From a virus, in the IMG/VR virus record IMGVR_UViG_3300036766_000416, positions 32,001 to 96,000 of that record: DNA of 64,000 nt; one strand, written 5' to 3'. Below the pieces are notes generated by a model, which was not told the origin of the DNA, ran no database searches, and saw only the letters and a list, made by a program, of their open reading frames with translations. Below, one piece after another: positions 3,664 to 33,711 of the stretch (within the stretch, counting starts at the first letter, position 1; each line of letters opens with the position of its first letter). Position numbers and translations under genes: made by a program.

Positions 3664-4221
3664 ATGGCATATAATTATTCCTACGAACACCACATCATTC
3701 CTCTCCATGAGTGGAAGCGACGAATCAATCCAAAAGCCACCAGGCGTGATAAGGATTTTAATGCCCCCAATAATATTGTGTGGCTAACCTCGGAGCAGCA
3801 TATTCAGGTTCACCAGTTACTTTGGGAATTAAATAATTCGAAGTTCGACTTAATGGCGGCGCGCCTGATGTCTAAGCAAATTACAGACGAAGAGTCTTTT
3901 ATGGAACTCTGCCGAATTGGTGGTGTAATGAGTGGTTTGGCAAATAGAGGAAAGAAATATGCCGCGTGGACAAGAGAACGCCGCCATAGTCAGTCCGAAC
4001 GTATGGTTGGTAATCAGAACACTCTGGGTTATAAACACACAGAGGAATGGAAACAGGAGAAGTCTGCCAGCACGGTGGGTAACCAATATGCTAAAGGTAG
4101 CAAGCGAACTTTAGAACAAAGCATGGCACGAAAAGTCGCCAGACCTAGAAAGGAGCGAGAACCTCACATTTACAAACGTGGCCCTTACAAAAAGAAAAAT
4201 CTTGACAAGCTAACTAAATAG
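3664..4221 (+). CDS. Free-standing HNH homing endonuclease with NUMOD3-like repeats
   Basis: EHHIIPLHEW..NNIVWLTSEQHIQVHQLL; GYKHTEEWKQ. Inserted between 59 and 32. Confidence 0.85.
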   Translation: MAYNYSYEHHIIPLHEWKRRINPKATRRDKDFNAPNNIVWLTSEQHIQVHQLLWELNNSKFDLMAARLMSKQITDEESFMELCRIGGVMSGLANRGKKYAAWTRERRHSQSERMVGNQNTLGYKHTEEWKQEKSASTVGNQYAKGSKRTLEQSMARKVARPRKEREPHIYKRGPYKKKNLDKLTK

Positions 4222-4230
4222 TGTTATACT
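4202..4230 (+). promoter_or_regulatory. Near-consensus sigma70 promoter for gene 32 with a late-promoter-like ACTAAATA in its spacer
   Basis: TTGACA (4202-4207), 17-nt spacer, TATACT (4225-4230). ACTAAATA at 4213-4220. Confidence 0.85.
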
Positions 4231-4286
4231 TGCATCCACATACGGGTTTTCAATAACCATATACTATCACCAATAGGAGGTTTCTT

Positions 4287-5198
4287 ATGTCTACGCCAAC
4301 ATCGTTTTCGGCATTAAAAAGGTCTAGGGGTAGTGTTGAAAAACTTACCCAGGCCATCCAGAGTCTCAATACAAAAAACGACAAGAAAGAGGACGAACGG
4401 TTTTGGGAACCTACAGTCGATAAGGCTGGTAACGGTATCGCCGTTCTTCGGTTCCTTCCAGCACCACAGCAAGACGGTGAGGATGGGTTGCCATGGGTTC
4501 GGACCTTCTCACATGGATTCAAGGGTCCAGGTGGATGGTTGATCGACTTGTGCTTGACCACAGTAGACCAGAAGTGCCCTGTCTGTGAACACAACACCGC
4601 ACTCTGGAATTCTGGAGTTGAGGCGAACAAGACCATTGCGAGAGACCGAAAACGCAAGCTGTCGTATTTTGCGAACATCTTGGTGGTGTCTGATCCAGCC
4701 AAGCCAGAGTTTGATGGTAAGGTGAAGTTGTTCAGATTTGGCAGCAAGATTTTCGACAAGATTTCCGAAAAGATGCATCCAGAATTTGCCGATGAAAAGG
4801 CATTCAGCCCATTCGATTTGTGGGATGGTGCGAACTTCAAGCTCAAGATTCGCCAGGTCGAGGGGTACCGCAACTACGACAAGAGCGAGTTCACCACACA
4901 GGCCCCAGTCTCTACAGACGACGCCGTGCTCGAAAAGCTTTGGCAACAGGAGTTCTCACTGAGGGAGTTTGTATCCCCTAAGCACTTCAAGACCTATGAG
5001 CAGATTGCTGCTCGTATGACCCTGGTGCTTGGGAGTGTCACGGTCAACACCTCAGCGGAAAAGTCTGTGTCAGCAGCTCTCACGGATGACACCGATATGG
5101 GAGTGGTCTCACCTGTCAGTCACCCGGGGTTGCCAACTTCCGCACCGCCGGATGAGGACGATATGAGTTTTTTCCAGAACTTGGCGGAGTCTGAGTAA
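4287..5198 (+). CDS. 32: Single-stranded DNA-binding protein gp32
   Basis: DERFWEPTVDKAGNGIAVLRFLPAP; CLTTVDQKCPVCE; FDLWDGANFKLKIRQVEGYRNYDKSEF; acidic tail DEDDMSFFQNLAE. AGGAGG RBS. Confidence 0.97.
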   Translation: MSTPTSFSALKRSRGSVEKLTQAIQSLNTKNDKKEDERFWEPTVDKAGNGIAVLRFLPAPQQDGEDGLPWVRTFSHGFKGPGGWLIDLCLTTVDQKCPVCEHNTALWNSGVEANKTIARDRKRKLSYFANILVVSDPAKPEFDGKVKLFRFGSKIFDKISEKMHPEFADEKAFSPFDLWDGANFKLKIRQVEGYRNYDKSEFTTQAPVSTDDAVLEKLWQQEFSLREFVSPKHFKTYEQIAARMTLVLGSVTVNTSAEKSVSAALTDDTDMGVVSPVSHPGLPTSAPPDEDDMSFFQNLAESE

Positions 5199-5227
5199 CC
5201 GAATCGGGGTAATCATAGAGACATAGG

Positions 5228-5259
5228 ATGCCACCGGGTCTCATGATCTGGTGGCATTT
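5228..5259. terminator. Intrinsic terminator, probably bidirectional, between convergent gene 32 and the minus-strand gene
   Basis: ATGCCACCGGGTC-TCAT-GATCTGGTGGCAT forms a 13-bp stem (2 G:U pairs) followed by TTT. Confidence 0.75.
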
Positions 5260-5349
5260 GTGGGTCTAAATGAACCCCGTGAGGGGCCAGAAAGGGCTCA
5301 GGAGGGCACTTGAGGTAGGTACCTATGGCAAGCTATAGATATCAATGGG

Positions 5350-7257
5350 TTACGCAGGAGCAAAGCCCCTGTCCAGAGACCGCAAATAGCTCGATTCGCC
5401 GCTCCTGGCTGGGGGCATATTTTGATGTGTGGTAGTAGAGTTTGTGGTCTGGTTTTTCACATTATTGATGATTGTTGGTGCCACGATACCCTGTGTCGCG
5501 GGTGTCATAGCTGCATTTCTTTGAAGATCATTCGCTTGCGTGAGGGTTTGTCCTGTCTGTGGAGTCGCCGCCGGAAGTTCGGTGGGTGACGATGACATGA
5601 GGGTTTGAGGTACACTGCTATTCTCATAGGAATTTTCACCACCCATAGATGCAGGTGTTACAGACGAACCAGTTTGGCCTACGATAGCATCCAACCTCGC
5701 TGCGTCATCCCCAACAGCAGTCGGTGATTCGGACTTTGTTTTAGCTTCACCCATGAGCCAATCAGAGACAGACTCTTTGGCCATGGTCATCAGGCTGGGC
5801 AACCTTTCGGCGATCAGAGGATCGGTGAATGGATCAGCGTTGTAGATTTCCATATACGCATCACGTACCAGTGAGGCCACCAGTGACGGGATAGCCGCGC
5901 CAGGAATTGGAAGTGCTCCAGCGGCGTCGATGCCCGCACCCACCAGATCACCTTGAAGTAAGCGTGATGCAGCGAACGCAAGACCTACTGCGGACCCCAC
6001 TACAGGGATCAAAGTTGCAGCTTTCGACCCCAGAATCTTCGGAGCGATTCTTCCGAGGACCCCGGCAATTTTACTCTTGGGGGCAATCTTAGCCACCCCC
6101 TCAACGGCGACACCCACACCTTTGGTGATCTTGGAGGCGCTGCTGAGTTCTTTTGCTGCAATTTTTCCGGCAGCTTTTTCTCCGGCTTCTCCAACAACCT
6201 TCGCACCAGTTCCCAGGATTTTACCTGCGAGATCCTTGACACCACCTATAATGGCTTTTCCACCTTTGAGAATGGCTGAGCCTCCTTTGGTGACCGCACC
6301 TATTGCACCCTTACCTAAGGATTTCAAGGCACCGGTGATGGAGGGAAGAAGTCTGGTCAATGCTCCACCGAGAAGTGATAGTGGATTGAGGAGTTTACCC
6401 AGTGAAGCTGCGAATTCTAAAGCTGCGGCACCAAGTATCTTGAACCACCCCATGAGCGTTTCGAGCCAGGAGGGACCTTCTTTTTTCTCCTCGCCTTTGA
6501 TAATTTGTTTGGGTGTAACCTTTTTGAATTTTGCGCTTTCAGCAGCTTCTTTGTCCCTGATGCGTTCTGCTTCTGCCTTGGCTAATCCAACTCCCTGCTC
6601 CTCAAATTTTTCTATGTTATGGAGCGACAACACCATTTTTTCTAATAGATTGAGAACCTTTGTTGAAGAGACTGGCGAGGCACCACCTTCCGTGCCCTCG
6701 TTTGCTGGGCTTGGGCTTCCGGCTGCCCCTGCAGCACCATCCAGACCTGGAGGAAGGACACCTTGTAAACCCGCTGCACTGCGTATTGATTGCTCAGAGC
6801 GACCCATGATGCGGCCAGCCAAGACAGTAGCGAGCTTTGAGCCACCGGTGAGTCTGTGAACGATGTTGAGAGGATCGAACCGTTTCTTGATTGATGTTTT
6901 GATTTTTCGAGTTTTGAATCCTGCAGCAGCGCCAATTGCACCCTTGACGGAACCTCCACCCGCGAGGTGTTCGGCTGCTACATCAGCCATTGTGTTTTCA
7001 CGTTGCTGACTTTCGACTATTCGGCTTCTAATATTTCTGAGGGCTGCAAGGATTTCTTTTTTTGTTTCTTTTCCAAGTTCTACTTTAGGAGGTTTGGGAT
7101 CTTTAGGAGCGCGAGGGGTTGGACGGTGCTCGTGTTTGATGTTCGCCTTGGCCACTTCTTCCACGGGCTTTGTTTGCGAGGCAATTTTCTCAAGGCTCTC
7201 GCGCATGTCAGCAAACTGATCTTTCATATCTTTGAATGGGTCTTTTTCTTCAGCCAT
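5350..7257 (-). CDS. Probable tape-measure / baseplate hub (gp29-like) protein, 635 aa
   Basis: Ala/Gly/Lys-rich amphipathic stretches, two hydrophobic segments and a low-complexity S/T/N C-terminus (PTIINNVKNQTTNSTT). Late promoter directly upstream. Located next to gp4 and gp48. Family is inferred. Confidence 0.55.
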   Translation of the reverse strand: MAEEKDPFKDMKDQFADMRESLEKIASQTKPVEEVAKANIKHEHRPTPRAPKDPKPPKVELGKETKKEILAALRNIRSRIVESQQRENTMADVAAEHLAGGGSVKGAIGAAAGFKTRKIKTSIKKRFDPLNIVHRLTGGSKLATVLAGRIMGRSEQSIRSAAGLQGVLPPGLDGAAGAAGSPSPANEGTEGGASPVSSTKVLNLLEKMVLSLHNIEKFEEQGVGLAKAEAERIRDKEAAESAKFKKVTPKQIIKGEEKKEGPSWLETLMGWFKILGAAALEFAASLGKLLNPLSLLGGALTRLLPSITGALKSLGKGAIGAVTKGGSAILKGGKAIIGGVKDLAGKILGTGAKVVGEAGEKAAGKIAAKELSSASKITKGVGVAVEGVAKIAPKSKIAGVLGRIAPKILGSKAATLIPVVGSAVGLAFAASRLLQGDLVGAGIDAAGALPIPGAAIPSLVASLVRDAYMEIYNADPFTDPLIAERLPSLMTMAKESVSDWLMGEAKTKSESPTAVGDDAARLDAIVGQTGSSVTPASMGGENSYENSSVPQTLMSSSPTELPAATPQTGQTLTQANDLQRNAAMTPATQGIVAPTIINNVKNQTTNSTTTHQNMPPARSGESSYLRSLDRGFAPA

Positions 7258-7262
7258 GGTAG

Positions 7263-7270
7263 TATTTATA
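7263..7270 (-). promoter_or_regulatory. T4 late promoter TATAAATA, 5 nt before the ATG at 7257
   Basis: TATTTATA on the + strand at 7263-7270. Confidence 0.85.
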
Positions 7271-8152
7271 TCACAGAAACGGAAGGTCTCTTTCGGTGAG
7301 CACTAGGAATTCCCAACCCTGGTCTTTGGCGAATATTGTGGCCGCGGCAAACTTTGCTTGATTGGTGGCTACAATTGCAGCCTCTTGTAGCAGTTTTTGC
7401 GACCTTCGTTTTGATTGACGTAGCACCGTATCATTAAAAGGTTTTATTTCGATGATAAAGACCTTGATACCTGTCTTTGTTTGAACCTTGGTTAGAAAAT
7501 CTGGATAGTATGTTCGTTGTTTCTGTTTGACGGGGTCAAAGTAAGGTATTTTTAATTCTTCGCTAGACCAAGAGATCGTGGCCGGAGATTCGTCGATCCA
7601 ATACATCACCCTTTTCTCCCACATAGAACGATACACGATTGTCTTGATATTCCCAACGTATTTTGTTGGGTTACGTGGGGTAAAAAACCCTTTGTAGGTC
7701 ATTCTTCCGTTATTCATTCTAAACGCTCCTCTTGTTGCCATAGATAGGGCAATTTTCTTGTATCGAGCATCGTAAAATTGCTGTAAAATCTCAGGAGACG
7801 ATTCTTTATGCCAACGATGGATGCTATTACGGGCAAGTTCTTGTCTTTGTTCTAGGGTCAATCTATTAGTATTCTTCTTTATTAGTTGTTCTTTTGACAT
7901 CAGACTATTTTGTAACCTTATAGTTTGTCCTATCTTTGTTCTTATATTAGCCCCCTCTACTGTCTCTTCCCTCTCTTTCCACAGTCGTTCCATGTTACCT
8001 CGAACCTTTTCTACAAATTGGGAATGCCGTATGGGGTCATTTTTGAGTTTGAGTCTATACAGCTTGGCCGCACAGGACCTAGAGCAACATGGTTGTTTGG
8101 TGGTAGGGATGTGGCAGAATTGGCACTGACCGAGGGTATAAATATCCGACAT
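7271..8152 (-). CDS. 4: Head completion nuclease gp4 (TnsA-like PD-(D/E)XK) with an in-frame N-terminal Zn-finger/basic extension of about 145 aa
   Basis: gp4 core MTYKGFFTPRNPTKYVG..VYRSMWE..WSSEELKIPY..YYPDF..IEIKP..NQAKF..GWEFLVLTE. Long start ATG 8152 with GGAGG 7 nt upstream. Internal start ATG 7717 with GAGGAG 8 nt upstream. Confidence 0.88.
   Translation of the reverse strand: MSDIYTLGQCQFCHIPTTKQPCCSRSCAAKLYRLKLKNDPIRHSQFVEKVRGNMERLWKEREETVEGANIRTKIGQTIRLQNSLMSKEQLIKKNTNRLTLEQRQELARNSIHRWHKESSPEILQQFYDARYKKIALSMATRGAFRMNNGRMTYKGFFTPRNPTKYVGNIKTIVYRSMWEKRVMYWIDESPATISWSSEELKIPYFDPVKQKQRTYYPDFLTKVQTKTGIKVFIIEIKPFNDTVLRQSKRRSQKLLQEAAIVATNQAKFAAATIFAKDQGWEFLVLTERDLPFL
8137..8144 (+). promoter_or_regulatory. 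Perfect late promoter TATAAATA lying antisense within the 5' end of the gp4 fusion
   Basis: Exact consensus. Function not established. Confidence 0.45.
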
Positions 8153-8213
8153 AGCTGGACCTCCCGAAAGGTTTAGAGTGTCTGGGGTGGCGAAACCCGC
8201 GAGGCACATCTTC

Positions 8214-8232
8214 TATTTATGTCACATAAATA
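8214..8232. promoter_or_regulatory. Back-to-back divergent late promoters (CATAAATA on each strand)
   Basis: TATTTATGT-C-ACATAAATA inverted repeat between divergent gp4 and gp48. Confidence 0.85.
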
Positions 8233-8259
8233 CACTGATGCAGTCCATTGGAGGTATTT

Positions 8260-9339
8260 ATGGCGGACGAGAGTCTCGTTGGTGATATACAAAACTATGT
8301 GGTAGATAAGTTCAAACAGTTGGTGAATAGCGAGACAGCACGAAACGCTGCATTCGTTACCAGGGATGCGATCAATAGCATTACGGCTGAGGAGACGCAG
8401 GAGCAACGTGGTAAGAATGTAAAAGAACAAAAACTTTACCAATACAAGTATCACCAGTATCCCCTCGATTTAGCAAAAGGCGGCCGCCATCCATACTATA
8501 TGACATTTTTTATTGCGACTCAAGACTTGTCCCAATTCAAGCGCCCAAAGTCAAAAGGTCCGGCTCCTCTGTCTACCGTTGATATCAACGCCAGGGCTAC
8601 TAAGACTTTAGCTAAAAATTATAAGGACAGCAATATAGGTTTCGGTAGAAAAACCCATCGCACAACCAATGCGATCCGGTTATACATGCCCGATAGCTTG
8701 AGTTGGAATTTCCGCAACCAATTTGGTGACGTGAGTTTATCGGGGATTCCTGGTACGGCCCTAGCTCAGGCTATCGCCTCGGGTCCTGCTTTAGCCAATT
8801 CTCTTATCGAAGGCTACCAAAAGAGCGGTATTACTGGACTCCTGGCCAGTCTCAATTCCAAGGAAGCGCGCGCCGCGGCCGCTCCACTCGCCGAGGTTAT
8901 TGGAGATAAAATTCCAGGAGTTGGTTCTGGATTACTAACCTCGGCCCTAGGTGTGGCGGTAAATCCACAGATCGATGTCATTTATCAATCTCCATCTCTA
9001 CGAGAATTTATATTTGACTACCTTTTTGCCCCTCGTAATGCTCAAGAATCGGCTATGGTGTCCGATATTATCAAATTATTCAAATTTCATGCATCCCCCG
9101 AAATTCTTAGCACGGGGTTTGGTCGATATTTCATTCCACCATCGGAATTTGATATTGAATTTTCAGTAAATACCATGGGAAAGATTTCAACATGTGTGCT
9201 TGAGGAGGTGACCGTTGATTATGCACCATCAGGAGCCTCGTTTTACAGAAGCGATGATCAACCCGTCAATACGCATATGACCTTGAGATTCAAGGAACTC
9301 GAATTTATGACAAAGGAACTCATAGAAAGAGGATACTGA
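8260..9339 (+). CDS. 48: Baseplate tail-tube cap gp48
   Basis: GGAGG at 8250-8254 supports ATG 8260. YQYPLDL; IRLYMPD; AVNPQIDVIYQSPSLREFIFDYLFAPRNAQES; LRFKELEFMTK. Confidence 0.9.
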   Translation: MADESLVGDIQNYVVDKFKQLVNSETARNAAFVTRDAINSITAEETQEQRGKNVKEQKLYQYKYHQYPLDLAKGGRHPYYMTFFIATQDLSQFKRPKSKGPAPLSTVDINARATKTLAKNYKDSNIGFGRKTHRTTNAIRLYMPDSLSWNFRNQFGDVSLSGIPGTALAQAIASGPALANSLIEGYQKSGITGLLASLNSKEARAAAAPLAEVIGDKIPGVGSGLLTSALGVAVNPQIDVIYQSPSLREFIFDYLFAPRNAQESAMVSDIIKLFKFHASPEILSTGFGRYFIPPSEFDIEFSVNTMGKISTCVLEEVTVDYAPSGASFYRSDDQPVNTHMTLRFKELEFMTKELIERGY

Positions 9340-31809: not shown

Positions 31810-33711
31810 ATGTTTATATGGAATTCCAACCCAAATCCTCCTCCAGTTGTACCCGCACCGGTCATTGGCCCGGATGAGGTTTCCTTTGATGTTCATGTAG
31901 TCGCCAATACTGTCAATGTCCATGGTCTAGTCATTGGTACTCTTTCCTATAATACTGCAAACGAGGGGTATGATGTTATCTATGAACTCCCCTCACTGAA
32001 CGTTCGAAATCTCCACGCACAAACTCTCACAGCAATCCGAGCAACGATCAACTCAGCATTCATCAATACCGCTACTATCAATAACGCGACCATTAACACC
32101 GCAAACATATCCAGTGCGACCATCGCTAATGGAATAATGGGGGTGCACCCAGTTCAGAATCTTCAGATTGCGACGAAGGAGTATGTGGATACTCTCATAG
32201 CGAATTCTGTACCACAGGGTGGAAATTTACAGTTACTCATCATCGCTGCCGGCGACCTCCTGGTGGGTATTGCGGATAACACCGCGGAACGATTGCCCAT
32301 AGGAACATTAGATCGATCTGTGCTGATCGCTGGAAGTGACAGCAATACGGGGGTGCGCTGGAGCACTGGAACCAGGGGGTCTATCTCCACACACCGAGGC
32401 CTCTACATAGGAACGTCTTTTGATTCTCAACTGAGAAATACACATGTCGAATTGGTGACGGTGGATGAGGTAGTAATGGATGATGGTACGCGCATTTCGT
32501 CTGGTTGGAATGGATTAACAGCAGCGATTACCTCGAATGTCGCCACATCAGGAGTGGGATACATAGATACGGGGGTCGTTAAGGCGCAAACATGCTATGA
32601 AATATGGGGTGTTCGTAACAGTAGCAACGGGGCCCAGGGACTCGTGCTGCATCGTGCTATTGAGCGATTTGTTGATGTGTCATACCGGCCAACCATCGTC
32701 GCTGCGTTCCGAAAAATAAATTATGCGCTTGGAGTCGGTCTCACAACCTGTATCAATGCAGCCCAGAGCTTTGTCTCCACCAATACAGGTCCATTTACAT
32801 CGATAGAACTGACGATGTTCCGAGTGGGATCGCCGGTAGGGAATTGTTGGGTGACGCTTGAGGCGAACACTGGGGGAAATGCGAGCGGAGTACCATTGTC
32901 CACCAGTCGATACATGGATGCCGGTCGAATGCCCACTGATGCCACTGGGGGTCGAATTCGGTTTGTTTTTGATACCACGGCCAACGTCGTTTCTGGGAAT
33001 TCCTATTGGGGAGTCTTTCATGTGGATTATCCCCAGGCCTTTGTCGGAAATGAGAATCATCTTTCGTTGTGTGGAGTCGCCACTGAGGCGTTTGCGAACG
33101 GAACAGGAAAACAATTTAGTGCGAACACCAATACGTGGCAATCAGCGAACGCAAGTGCCCCAGCAATCGCCGACTTTTATATTCGAACATTTGTGGAAAG
33201 TTTCAACACCGATCTATTGATGCCAACGGGTTATGACCAGAAATGTCTACTCAGTTACATGTCAACCTCTGGTAATGCCGGAGGTTTTGGTGTCGTCGTG
33301 TCGGAGTATCACCAAAGGGGTACCAAAATTGAAACAAATTTTCATTATAACTGGGACATTAACTATAACTCAGCATTTGGTGGGGGTGCTAACCCCACCG
33401 ATGTGCAAACTGGGCTACTAGAAGTCTTGGATATGCGAAACTATGTACCCCCAGTTCCTTGCCTTGTGACATTTGCAGTGAGTTGTTATAGTGGCGTCCA
33501 TACGTTTACATGCGTGGGGGCTTTGTCCAGCACGGATATGGGAGGAACAGGAGGAACCCCCATAGTCATTGAGTCGAGCGGTCAGATATGTGCGAATATA
33601 CCCGCCTCTTCTCAGATGTTATTTGGACCGGTGCTTGTGGAACACCAATCTGTTGTACTTCGTACTCATGCGTCTACCACAACCTTCTGGACCGCTGAGG
33701 TGGAATACTAA
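31810..33711 (+). CDS. Fibre / receptor-binding protein, paralog 2 of 4
   Basis: FIWNSNPNPPP N-terminus; IATKEYVD; GDLLVG; AAQSF; GYDQKCL. Confidence 0.75.
   Translation: MFIWNSNPNPPPVVPAPVIGPDEVSFDVHVVANTVNVHGLVIGTLSYNTANEGYDVIYELPSLNVRNLHAQTLTAIRATINSAFINTATINNATINTANISSATIANGIMGVHPVQNLQIATKEYVDTLIANSVPQGGNLQLLIIAAGDLLVGIADNTAERLPIGTLDRSVLIAGSDSNTGVRWSTGTRGSISTHRGLYIGTSFDSQLRNTHVELVTVDEVVMDDGTRISSGWNGLTAAITSNVATSGVGYIDTGVVKAQTCYEIWGVRNSSNGAQGLVLHRAIERFVDVSYRPTIVAAFRKINYALGVGLTTCINAAQSFVSTNTGPFTSIELTMFRVGSPVGNCWVTLEANTGGNASGVPLSTSRYMDAGRMPTDATGGRIRFVFDTTANVVSGNSYWGVFHVDYPQAFVGNENHLSLCGVATEAFANGTGKQFSANTNTWQSANASAPAIADFYIRTFVESFNTDLLMPTGYDQKCLLSYMSTSGNAGGFGVVVSEYHQRGTKIETNFHYNWDINYNSAFGGGANPTDVQTGLLEVLDMRNYVPPVPCLVTFAVSCYSGVHTFTCVGALSSTDMGGTGGTPIVIESSGQICANIPASSQMLFGPVLVEHQSVVLRTHASTTTFWTAEVEY

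Follow-up and report, generated by a model that had tools for sequence, protein, structure and literature searches.

The product of gene 4 (gp4) is a head-completion nuclease that in T4 and thousands of relatives is about 150 aa long and has no N-terminal domain. In the phage studied here, by contrast, a 145-aa module precedes it in the same reading frame, which raises the question of where this extension came from and what it does for an essential structural nuclease. The locus lies in IMG/VR virus record IMGVR_UViG_3300036766_000416, of which we analysed positions 32,001 to 96,000. We refer to this 64,000-nt stretch as the window and give all window coordinates relative to its first nucleotide. 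We propose that the extension is probably the remnant of a homing endonuclease gene (HEG) that lost its HNH-like nuclease block, was captured by gp4 and has kept a DNA-binding role. Homology of the extension to a family of free-standing HEG-like proteins, together with the occurrence of that family beside gene 4 in intact, decayed and fused states, points to this origin.

A long gp4 gene with two start sites

The long gp4 open reading frame (ORF; protein P0001) occupies 7271..8152 on the minus strand and encodes 293 aa plus a stop codon (ATG 8152-8150; stop 7271-7273). The minus-strand frame is open over 7271..8209 and would give 312 aa if counted from an ATG at 8209. A Shine-Dalgarno (SD) sequence, GGAGG (8160..8164, minus strand), lies 7 nt 5' of the long start. 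An internal SD, GAGGAG (7726..7731, minus strand), lies 8 nt 5' of ATG 7717-7715, the canonical gp4 start (M146). An earlier note on this DNA, made from the letters alone, had described an in-frame extension of about 145 codons starting at 8152 behind a GGAGG ribosome-binding site, and a gp4 that keeps its own strong internal site and ATG 7717; both start regions were found as it had read them. M146 stands eight residues before the KG motif, exactly as does the start Met of the standard 149-aa gp4 P0076, and an additional ATG inside gp4 is present at 7702-7700 (M151).

For this genome, the public annotation has a shorter gene (P0002, 240 aa, 7271-7993, minus strand) that begins at M54. As this cuts off the conserved zinc knuckle described below, the start of P0002 is probably wrong; the exact 293-aa protein is recorded from a second assembly. 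A precomputed table attaches PF27227, a newer Pfam accession absent from the local Pfam, to the 240-aa call. The phage genome, one contig of 178.6 kb (48% GC), contains one gp4 and one copy of the extension. A paralogue search of the same genome returned only a chance 40-aa match interrupted by a stop.

The last 148 aa (7274..7717, minus strand) form the canonical gp4 core. They match PF08722, the TnsA-like N-terminal domain (68.9 bits, cutoff 26.5; 5.5e-19), and phrog_218, 'head closure' (3.6e-47), and are about 45% identical to gp4 of cyanophages and other T4-like phages. A Foldseek search with the core model found TnsA (1f1z, E 6.6e-4, prob 1.00), and the catalytic set (E..PD..ExK; E198/E199, D218, E235, K237) is conserved in the long forms, with D218 remaining invariant once HEGs and a short gp4 join the alignment. 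The TnsA-like PD-(D/E)XK fold that the earlier note had stated for gp4 is thus confirmed by profile, model and catalytic residues. Previously, gp4 had been predicted to be a PD-(D/E)XK nuclease (Kosinski 2005, PMC1189080), and T4 gp4 has been reported as a non-specific DNase required for morphogenesis (Benler 2020, as cited in PMC7824862). The C-terminal 148 aa of P0001 share family, fold and catalytic residues with T4 gp4, and in both phages the gene stands beside baseplate genes and is present in a single copy per genome.

The extension begins with the Cys motif CQFC..CCSRSC (C10, C13, C22/C23, C27), which had been noticed from the sequence. Four of these residues (C10, C13, C23, C27; 8072..8125, minus strand) are predicted to build a C4 zinc knuckle, modelled by AlphaFold2 (AF2) with a predicted local distance difference test (pLDDT) score of 92-95. 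Among 32 aligned relatives, C10 and C13 are invariant, while C23 and C27 are at least 90% conserved. The AF2 layout consists of the knuckle (residues 8-24), seven helices (residues 25-141; 7730..8080, minus strand; pLDDT ~90), a linker (about residues 141-155) modelled with low confidence, and the TnsA-like core; linker residues of about 142-150 correspond to 7703..7729, minus strand. Modelled in full, the protein reaches a pLDDT of 90, and the extension by itself 89.9. The predicted template modelling (pTM) score of the whole model is 0.54, and pLDDT drops to ~51 for residues 141-150, consistent with a disordered linker between two domains.

The extension is basic (28 K + R versus 14 D + E, pI ~10); the earlier note had read basic helical repeats in it. 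The same note had called it A-rich like the local HEGs. The extension is indeed A-rich (GC 0.411, A 0.366; the HEG-sized ORFs of the window have A 0.33-0.38), but the gp4 core is equally so (GC 0.423, A 0.342), so that composition cannot separate the two halves.

The extension belongs to a HEG-like family

Annotated resources offered little on the extension. The 145 aa gave no Pfam match at E ≤ 1, no PHROG match and no match to a nuclease family. A tblastn search against cultured phages (50,697 phage records), a peptide-pattern search in IMG/VR and a DNA megablast of the region against phages also returned no match. A PDB sequence search found only Mnd1 (E 0.5). At the level of fold, Foldseek found nothing in the PDB, and the best VIA-wide hit (Z 5.0) reflected generic long helices.

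An exhaustive phmmer search of 1.84 billion representatives (E ≤ 1e-3) yielded 70 environmental homologues, the best non-self match having an E-value of 6.7e-14. The hidden Markov model (HMM) of the domain scored 124.7 bits on P0001 and 2.3e-37 on the genome's own ORF. Most homologues are 200-320 aa long and share one architecture: a C2H2 finger comes first, then a 'YYD' stretch and the C4 knuckle, and a helical region leads to an HNH-like C-terminal block. The N-terminal classical C2H2 finger is backed by weak Pfam and PDB zinc-finger matches, and the C-terminal block contains invariant D-H, S, N-L, N and K residues (D-H..N..N..K, His-Me/HNH-like). The seven-helix module of the window is homologous to the middle of this family. 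The window extension aligns up to position ~183 of the 289-position family profile and ends before the nuclease block. It carries no D-H..N..N motif, so that the nuclease domain of the HEG class is not in the selfish part itself, and the C2H2 pattern is absent from both P0001 and its close relative P0003.

A match of the parent family to 7ong was rejected as a repeat artefact. Neighbours of the family in a language-model atlas include HNH clusters at 0.88-0.89, which we treat as a lead only. One existing profile touches both parts of the fusion: phrog_15137 ('endonuclease', 236 positions) aligns through its positions 2-129 to the C2H2-type front seen in P0013 and P0046 of the family, and through positions 123-212 to gp4-like cores. 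It thereby resembles the long gp4 forms in covering both a C2H2-type front and a gp4-like core; it differs in that all matches are weak (E 1e-3 to 1e-5). The profile may represent long gp4 forms or a related, separate zinc-finger PD-(D/E)XK enzyme.

Intact, decayed and fused copies at the 5' side of gene 4

Judged from sequence, four independent kinds of context place the parent family on the 5' side of gene 4. In the IMG/VR contig L162, an intact 297-aa family member (4001-4894) overlaps the start of an ordinary 144-aa gp4 (4881-5315) by 14 nt. Within L162:3893-4942, this element is bracketed by an 89-nt direct repeat that covers the beginning of gp4 (SD, ATG and first 21 codons). The two copies lie 961 nt apart and differ little over their final 34 nt; a separate TATAAATA precedes the upstream copy, which is closed by a stop. 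A GIY-YIG-like ORF (5328-5990) lies directly 3' of gp4 in the same contig.

Similar traces of a duplicated gp4 5' end were found elsewhere. In L082, the first 17 codons of an ORF are gp4-like, and the same frame goes on to encode the C2H2, C4 and helical parts. A frameshift comes next, the nuclease block is missing, and a complete gp4 of 153 aa lies immediately downstream. Protein P0006 starts as L082 does, with gp4-like codons first; a search for related loci with P0006 found no relative. In the window itself, 19 in-frame codons 5' of the long start (8153..8209, minus strand; M...GF.TP) look similar, at equal spacing, to the N-terminus of the gp4 of this phage. At this fixed offset, 23 of 57 nt are identical to the gp4 5' end, a value equalled by ~2% of shuffles, and the 19 codons are possibly a worn copy of a duplicated gp4 5' end comparable to those in L162, L082 and P0006, for which the resemblance is weak evidence.

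The cultured Stenotrophomonas phage Marzo (MZ326868.1 ~116574-117215; L163:2474-3115) carries a remnant ORF of the family in an unannotated 550-bp 'gap' between a gp48-like gene and gp4. This remnant encodes both zinc fingers, C2H2 and C4, and the initial helices, lacks the nuclease block and overlaps gp4 out of frame.

In-frame fusions were found in at least 11 cases: the window, L001, L014, L083 (P0042), P0046, P0050, P0057, P0060, P0073, P0074 and P0075. The C2H2 finger is retained in P0042, P0046, P0073 and L014, and all four zinc ligands persist across the fused forms at only ~30-37% identity. In several long forms no in-frame Met stands where gp4 normally starts, and L083 has only a GTG with a distant SD at this position. 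In those phages the long protein must therefore be the working gp4. An additional group of long gp4 proteins (P0077, P0085 and relatives; 'long2') shows only weak similarity to the module. Taken as stages, the loci form a plausible decay series from an intact HEG through loss of the nuclease block to fusion with gp4.

In Synechococcus phage S-B68 (MK016664.1; L164:2001-2156), a tblastn match to residues 141-339 of P0046 begins ~150 nt upstream of the annotated gp4 start and overlaps a divergent neighbour gene.

Distribution and selection

The module is rare. Of 161 gp4 loci retrieved from IMG/VR and elsewhere, four contain it, three of them fused (L001, L014, L083) and one a decayed copy, while the remaining loci are without it; more than 2,500 gp4 genes of cultured phages are short. 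Its presence between conserved genes is thus sporadic (4/161 loci) and occurs in intact, decayed and fused states. A gp4-core tree requires seven changes to account for 15 long forms (the 11 clear fusions and four 'long2' proteins). Forcing these into a single clade, a grouping defined after the first tree had been seen, costs 96 log-likelihood units and is rejected by the approximately unbiased (AU) test (p-AU 0.0097). The module tree intersperses the 11 fused forms with free-standing members and again needs seven changes, with weak support. Several independent fusions or losses are likely on this evidence.

The one close relative of the window protein is the 287-aa P0003 from L001, a 5.1-kb Logan contig in which the two-part architecture and the neighbouring genes are the same. 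Identity is 68% overall, 56% in the extension and 80% in the core. According to Nei-Gojobori counts, the proportion of synonymous differences (pS) between the two phages is saturated in both halves (0.78 and 0.82), whereas that of nonsynonymous differences (pN) reaches 0.265 for the extension and 0.117 for the core; each phage keeps the frame open. Over codons 1-60, which include the zinc ligands, pN is 0.22 and pS 0.98. The Cys ligands and both SD/ATG pairs are also kept in L001, with AGGAGG 5 nt before the long-start ATG and AAGGAG 5 nt before the aligned inner ATG. Conservation at the protein level and retention of both SDs argue that the extension is translated from about position 8152 and is under purifying selection, weaker than that on the core.

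Other gp4 cores at about 50% identity all lack the extension, and L014 has it at 33%. The earlier note had considered that an extension fixed in all relatives would speak against its HEG reading. L001, the sole close relative, does carry it; the other cores at ~50% identity do not.

Origin and role of the extension

In the explanation that we favour, the front end of P0001 would be the non-catalytic middle of a free-standing HEG-like gene resident 5' of gene 4. The C2H2 finger and the HNH-like part would have been deleted in this lineage, and the remaining knuckle and helices joined in frame just upstream of the SD and ATG of gp4. Late transcripts from the upstream NATAAATA motifs, translated from ATG 8152, would give a 293-aa protein that would serve as the main or only full gp4 of the phage, while initiation at ATG 7717, behind the preserved internal SD, may contribute some 148-aa gp4. 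Its C-terminal half would be the PD-(D/E)XK DNase for head completion, and its front end a folded, basic DNA-binding module on a flexible tether, held by purifying selection. This module would most likely still bind DNA near gene 4, at an old homing or operator site, or anchor gp4 on DNA; the long protein would not be an autonomous homing enzyme. Of the two origins offered in the earlier note, it is the remnant fused to gene 4 that agrees with the family homology and the intact, decayed and fused loci. Homology, architecture, the series of loci and the constraint on the extension are read directly from the sequence comparisons. We infer DNA binding from the family membership and charge of the extension, and any regulatory or protective role of the module is likewise our inference.

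Several points weigh against this explanation. Pfam and PDB profile searches of the parent family did not confirm the HNH class, for which reason we call the family HNH-like by its motif only. Neither NUMOD1/3/4 nor another known DNA-binding fold was recognised in the extension by Pfam (E ≤ 1), Foldseek or VIA, so the case for DNA binding leans on placement in the HEG-like family and on charge. Both trees are built from few columns and have weak backbones, and for this reason, as well as the post hoc definition of the one-clade group, several fusions or losses are considered likely rather than proven. The estimate of selection comes from one close relative, L001, and part of the constraint could arise from gp4 translation passing through the extension and from the need of an attached domain to stay folded. 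Finally, the phage is uncultured, and the sequencing runs listed for the locus comprise one DNA run (a sediment metagenome, the probable source) and no RNA run.

The other origin suggested in the earlier note is an active chimeric homing endonuclease. Here, the HNH-less recognition module would have borrowed gp4 as its cutting head and still home, a swap repeated across T4-like lineages. As a natural zinc-finger nuclease, the protein would use the HEG module to steer the gp4 DNase via the linker, cut extension-less gene 4 alleles of co-infecting phages and so spread the fused allele, with the internal start supplying normal gp4. In its favour, T4 gp4 is a reported non-specific DNase (Benler 2020, cited in PMC7824862), D218, E235 and K237 are kept, a disordered tether joins the domains, and the window contains HEG-sized A-rich ORFs. 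Fusions have apparently arisen or been kept repeatedly under constraint, and the phrog_15137 'endonuclease' profile spans a C2H2-type front and a gp4-like core. A driving element should, however, be common in its clade, whereas only three fused and one decayed copy occur in 161 loci. The related loci show plain HEG decay with frameshifts and out-of-frame remnants, which fits lost homing better than a nuclease swap, and the window lacks the C2H2 finger, presumably part of the recognition surface. We regard an active chimera as improbable. We are similarly doubtful that the extension is a functionless passenger, kept because gp4 expression depends on the promoter of a dead HEG and on read-through, with selection only for an open frame and a non-toxic fold. 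Overlap of the intact HEG with the gp4 start in L162 implies translational coupling, and no late-promoter motif separates the long and short starts in the window. Several fused forms have no internal Met, so that a stop in the extension would kill gp4, and the rate of change in the extension is about double that in the core. Against this, the internal SD and ATG of the window would make stops tolerable, yet the frame is open in both phages; pN in the extension is only one third of pS at saturated synonymous divergence; the four zinc ligands are kept across fused forms at ~30-37% identity; and a useless domain could be removed by simple deletion.

Homology alone gives no direction, and the module tree is poorly resolved, so the module might instead be an old accessory domain of gp4 that was borrowed by HNH-like proteins. 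This is very unlikely given that more than 2,500 cultured-phage gp4 genes and nearly all kept IMG/VR gp4 loci have no module, that long forms are scattered rather than basal, that some fusions carry a complete HEG front including the C2H2 finger, and that decaying intermediates lie upstream of a normal gp4. We give hardly any credence to an untranslated extension, with only the 148-aa gp4 or the 240-aa product from M54 being made. The public call P0002 (240 aa) does begin at M54, and the internal SD and ATG are good. Protein conservation nevertheless starts at the first residues and includes zinc ligands upstream of M54 (pN 0.22, pS 0.98, codons 1-60), the SD before the long start is kept in both phages, and 145 unconstrained codons would stay open with a probability of ~0.001 per lineage by a simple 61/64 estimate.

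Relation to known systems

The parent family resembles the Mob-family HNH HEGs of T4-like phages (PMC2988022), which are also small ORFs wedged between or overlapping conserved genes. Both combine a modular DNA-binding part with a small nuclease motif and are sporadically distributed, with some copies in decay. The order of parts is reversed: Mob HEGs have HNH first, while the family described here has its fingers first and a nuclease motif, unrecognised by Pfam, last. The window copy differs further from Mob HEGs in having neither a nuclease motif nor an ORF of its own. I-TevI (GIY-YIG; PMC2988022) is similar in joining a nuclease to a DNA-binding module via a flexible linker with a zinc finger. 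Its DNA-binding domain also acts as an autorepressor by promoter occlusion (PMC2988022), a precedent for a HEG domain acting alone. By analogy with this repression of its own promoter, the window module could bind an old target or operator near gene 4. I-TevI shows no recognised sequence or fold relation to the extension, and both of its parts come from the selfish gene, whereas the nuclease in the window is an essential phage protein.

In fungal mitochondria, HEG ORFs are fused in frame to host genes, for example rps3 and LAGLIDADG in Ophiostoma. Such HEG-host gene fusions are described in PMC7902536. As at gene 4, the HEG lies inside a conserved gene and is read in frame, and a duplicated gene end keeps the host gene whole, comparable to the gp4 5' duplications in L162, L082 and P0006. 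In the fungal cases a LAGLIDADG enzyme occupies the 3' end of a gene in an organelle. The family described here is HNH-like and is found at the 5' end of a gene for a phage structural nuclease; what survives of it in the window is the half without the nuclease.

HEG decay, moonlighting HEG domains and HEG-host fusions in fungal mitochondria are therefore all known. In the literature, we found no description of a HEG family at gene 4 or of a gp4 with such an extension, and neither the local Pfam nor the PHROG annotation includes a model for the parent family. This HEG-like family, tied to the 5' side of gene 4, is apparently undescribed. The loci suggest that an essential phage nuclease has repeatedly captured the recognition module of a selfish one.

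The loci would provide a multi-stage natural series for a HEG settled beside an essential gene, from intact through decaying copies to capture of the DNA-binding half. They indicate that gp4 tolerates a putative DNA-binding domain of 17 kDa and in several lineages exists only with it, which bears on how gp4 meets DNA during head completion. They also correct annotation, as the public call misses the zinc finger and the Marzo remnant is unannotated; Marzo, as a cultured phage carrying a remnant, is open to testing. Were the fusion still to cut specific sites, it would represent a new survival route for selfish nucleases and a natural template for programmable nucleases.

Promoter motifs around the long start

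The long start lies next to what appears from its motifs to be a compact divergent late-promoter hub (8137-8262) between gp4 and the baseplate operon. Four NATAAATA motifs fall within these 126 bp, two per strand. The core ATAAATA occurs 16 times in the 64-kb window, four of them within 8137-8262, and TATAAATA occurs in six copies in the window against 1.2 expected. On the minus strand, two late-promoter-like CATAAATA motifs (8214..8221 and 8255..8262) lie upstream of the long ORF. On the plus strand, a NATAAATA motif (8225..8232) faces the divergent baseplate operon starting at 8260, as does a TATAAATA (8137..8144) inside codons 3-5 of the long ORF (operon ATG 8260). No late-promoter-like motif was found in the interval separating the two gp4 starts of the window, so that the short gp4 could be made only by internal initiation on the same mRNA.

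The earlier note had pointed to the perfect antisense TATAAATA at 8137-8144. The motif is real, but the equivalent position in L001 does not contain it. Given this absence and its place as one of a four-motif promoter cluster, a role as a conserved regulator is not supported; it probably belongs to the divergent late-promoter cluster of the neighbouring operon, for which it may be an additional promoter, or it may be a chance match. The same note had proposed that the upstream ribosome-binding site pairs in a small hairpin. This candidate was discarded as well: the 91-nt region at the long start folds less stably than its shuffled controls (z +1.58), 197 of 200 shuffles folding at least as well.

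A further perfect TATAAATA (7263-7270, minus strand) lies directly after the gp4 stop. It ends 5 nt before ATG 7257 of a downstream gene encoding 635 aa, which has no SD.

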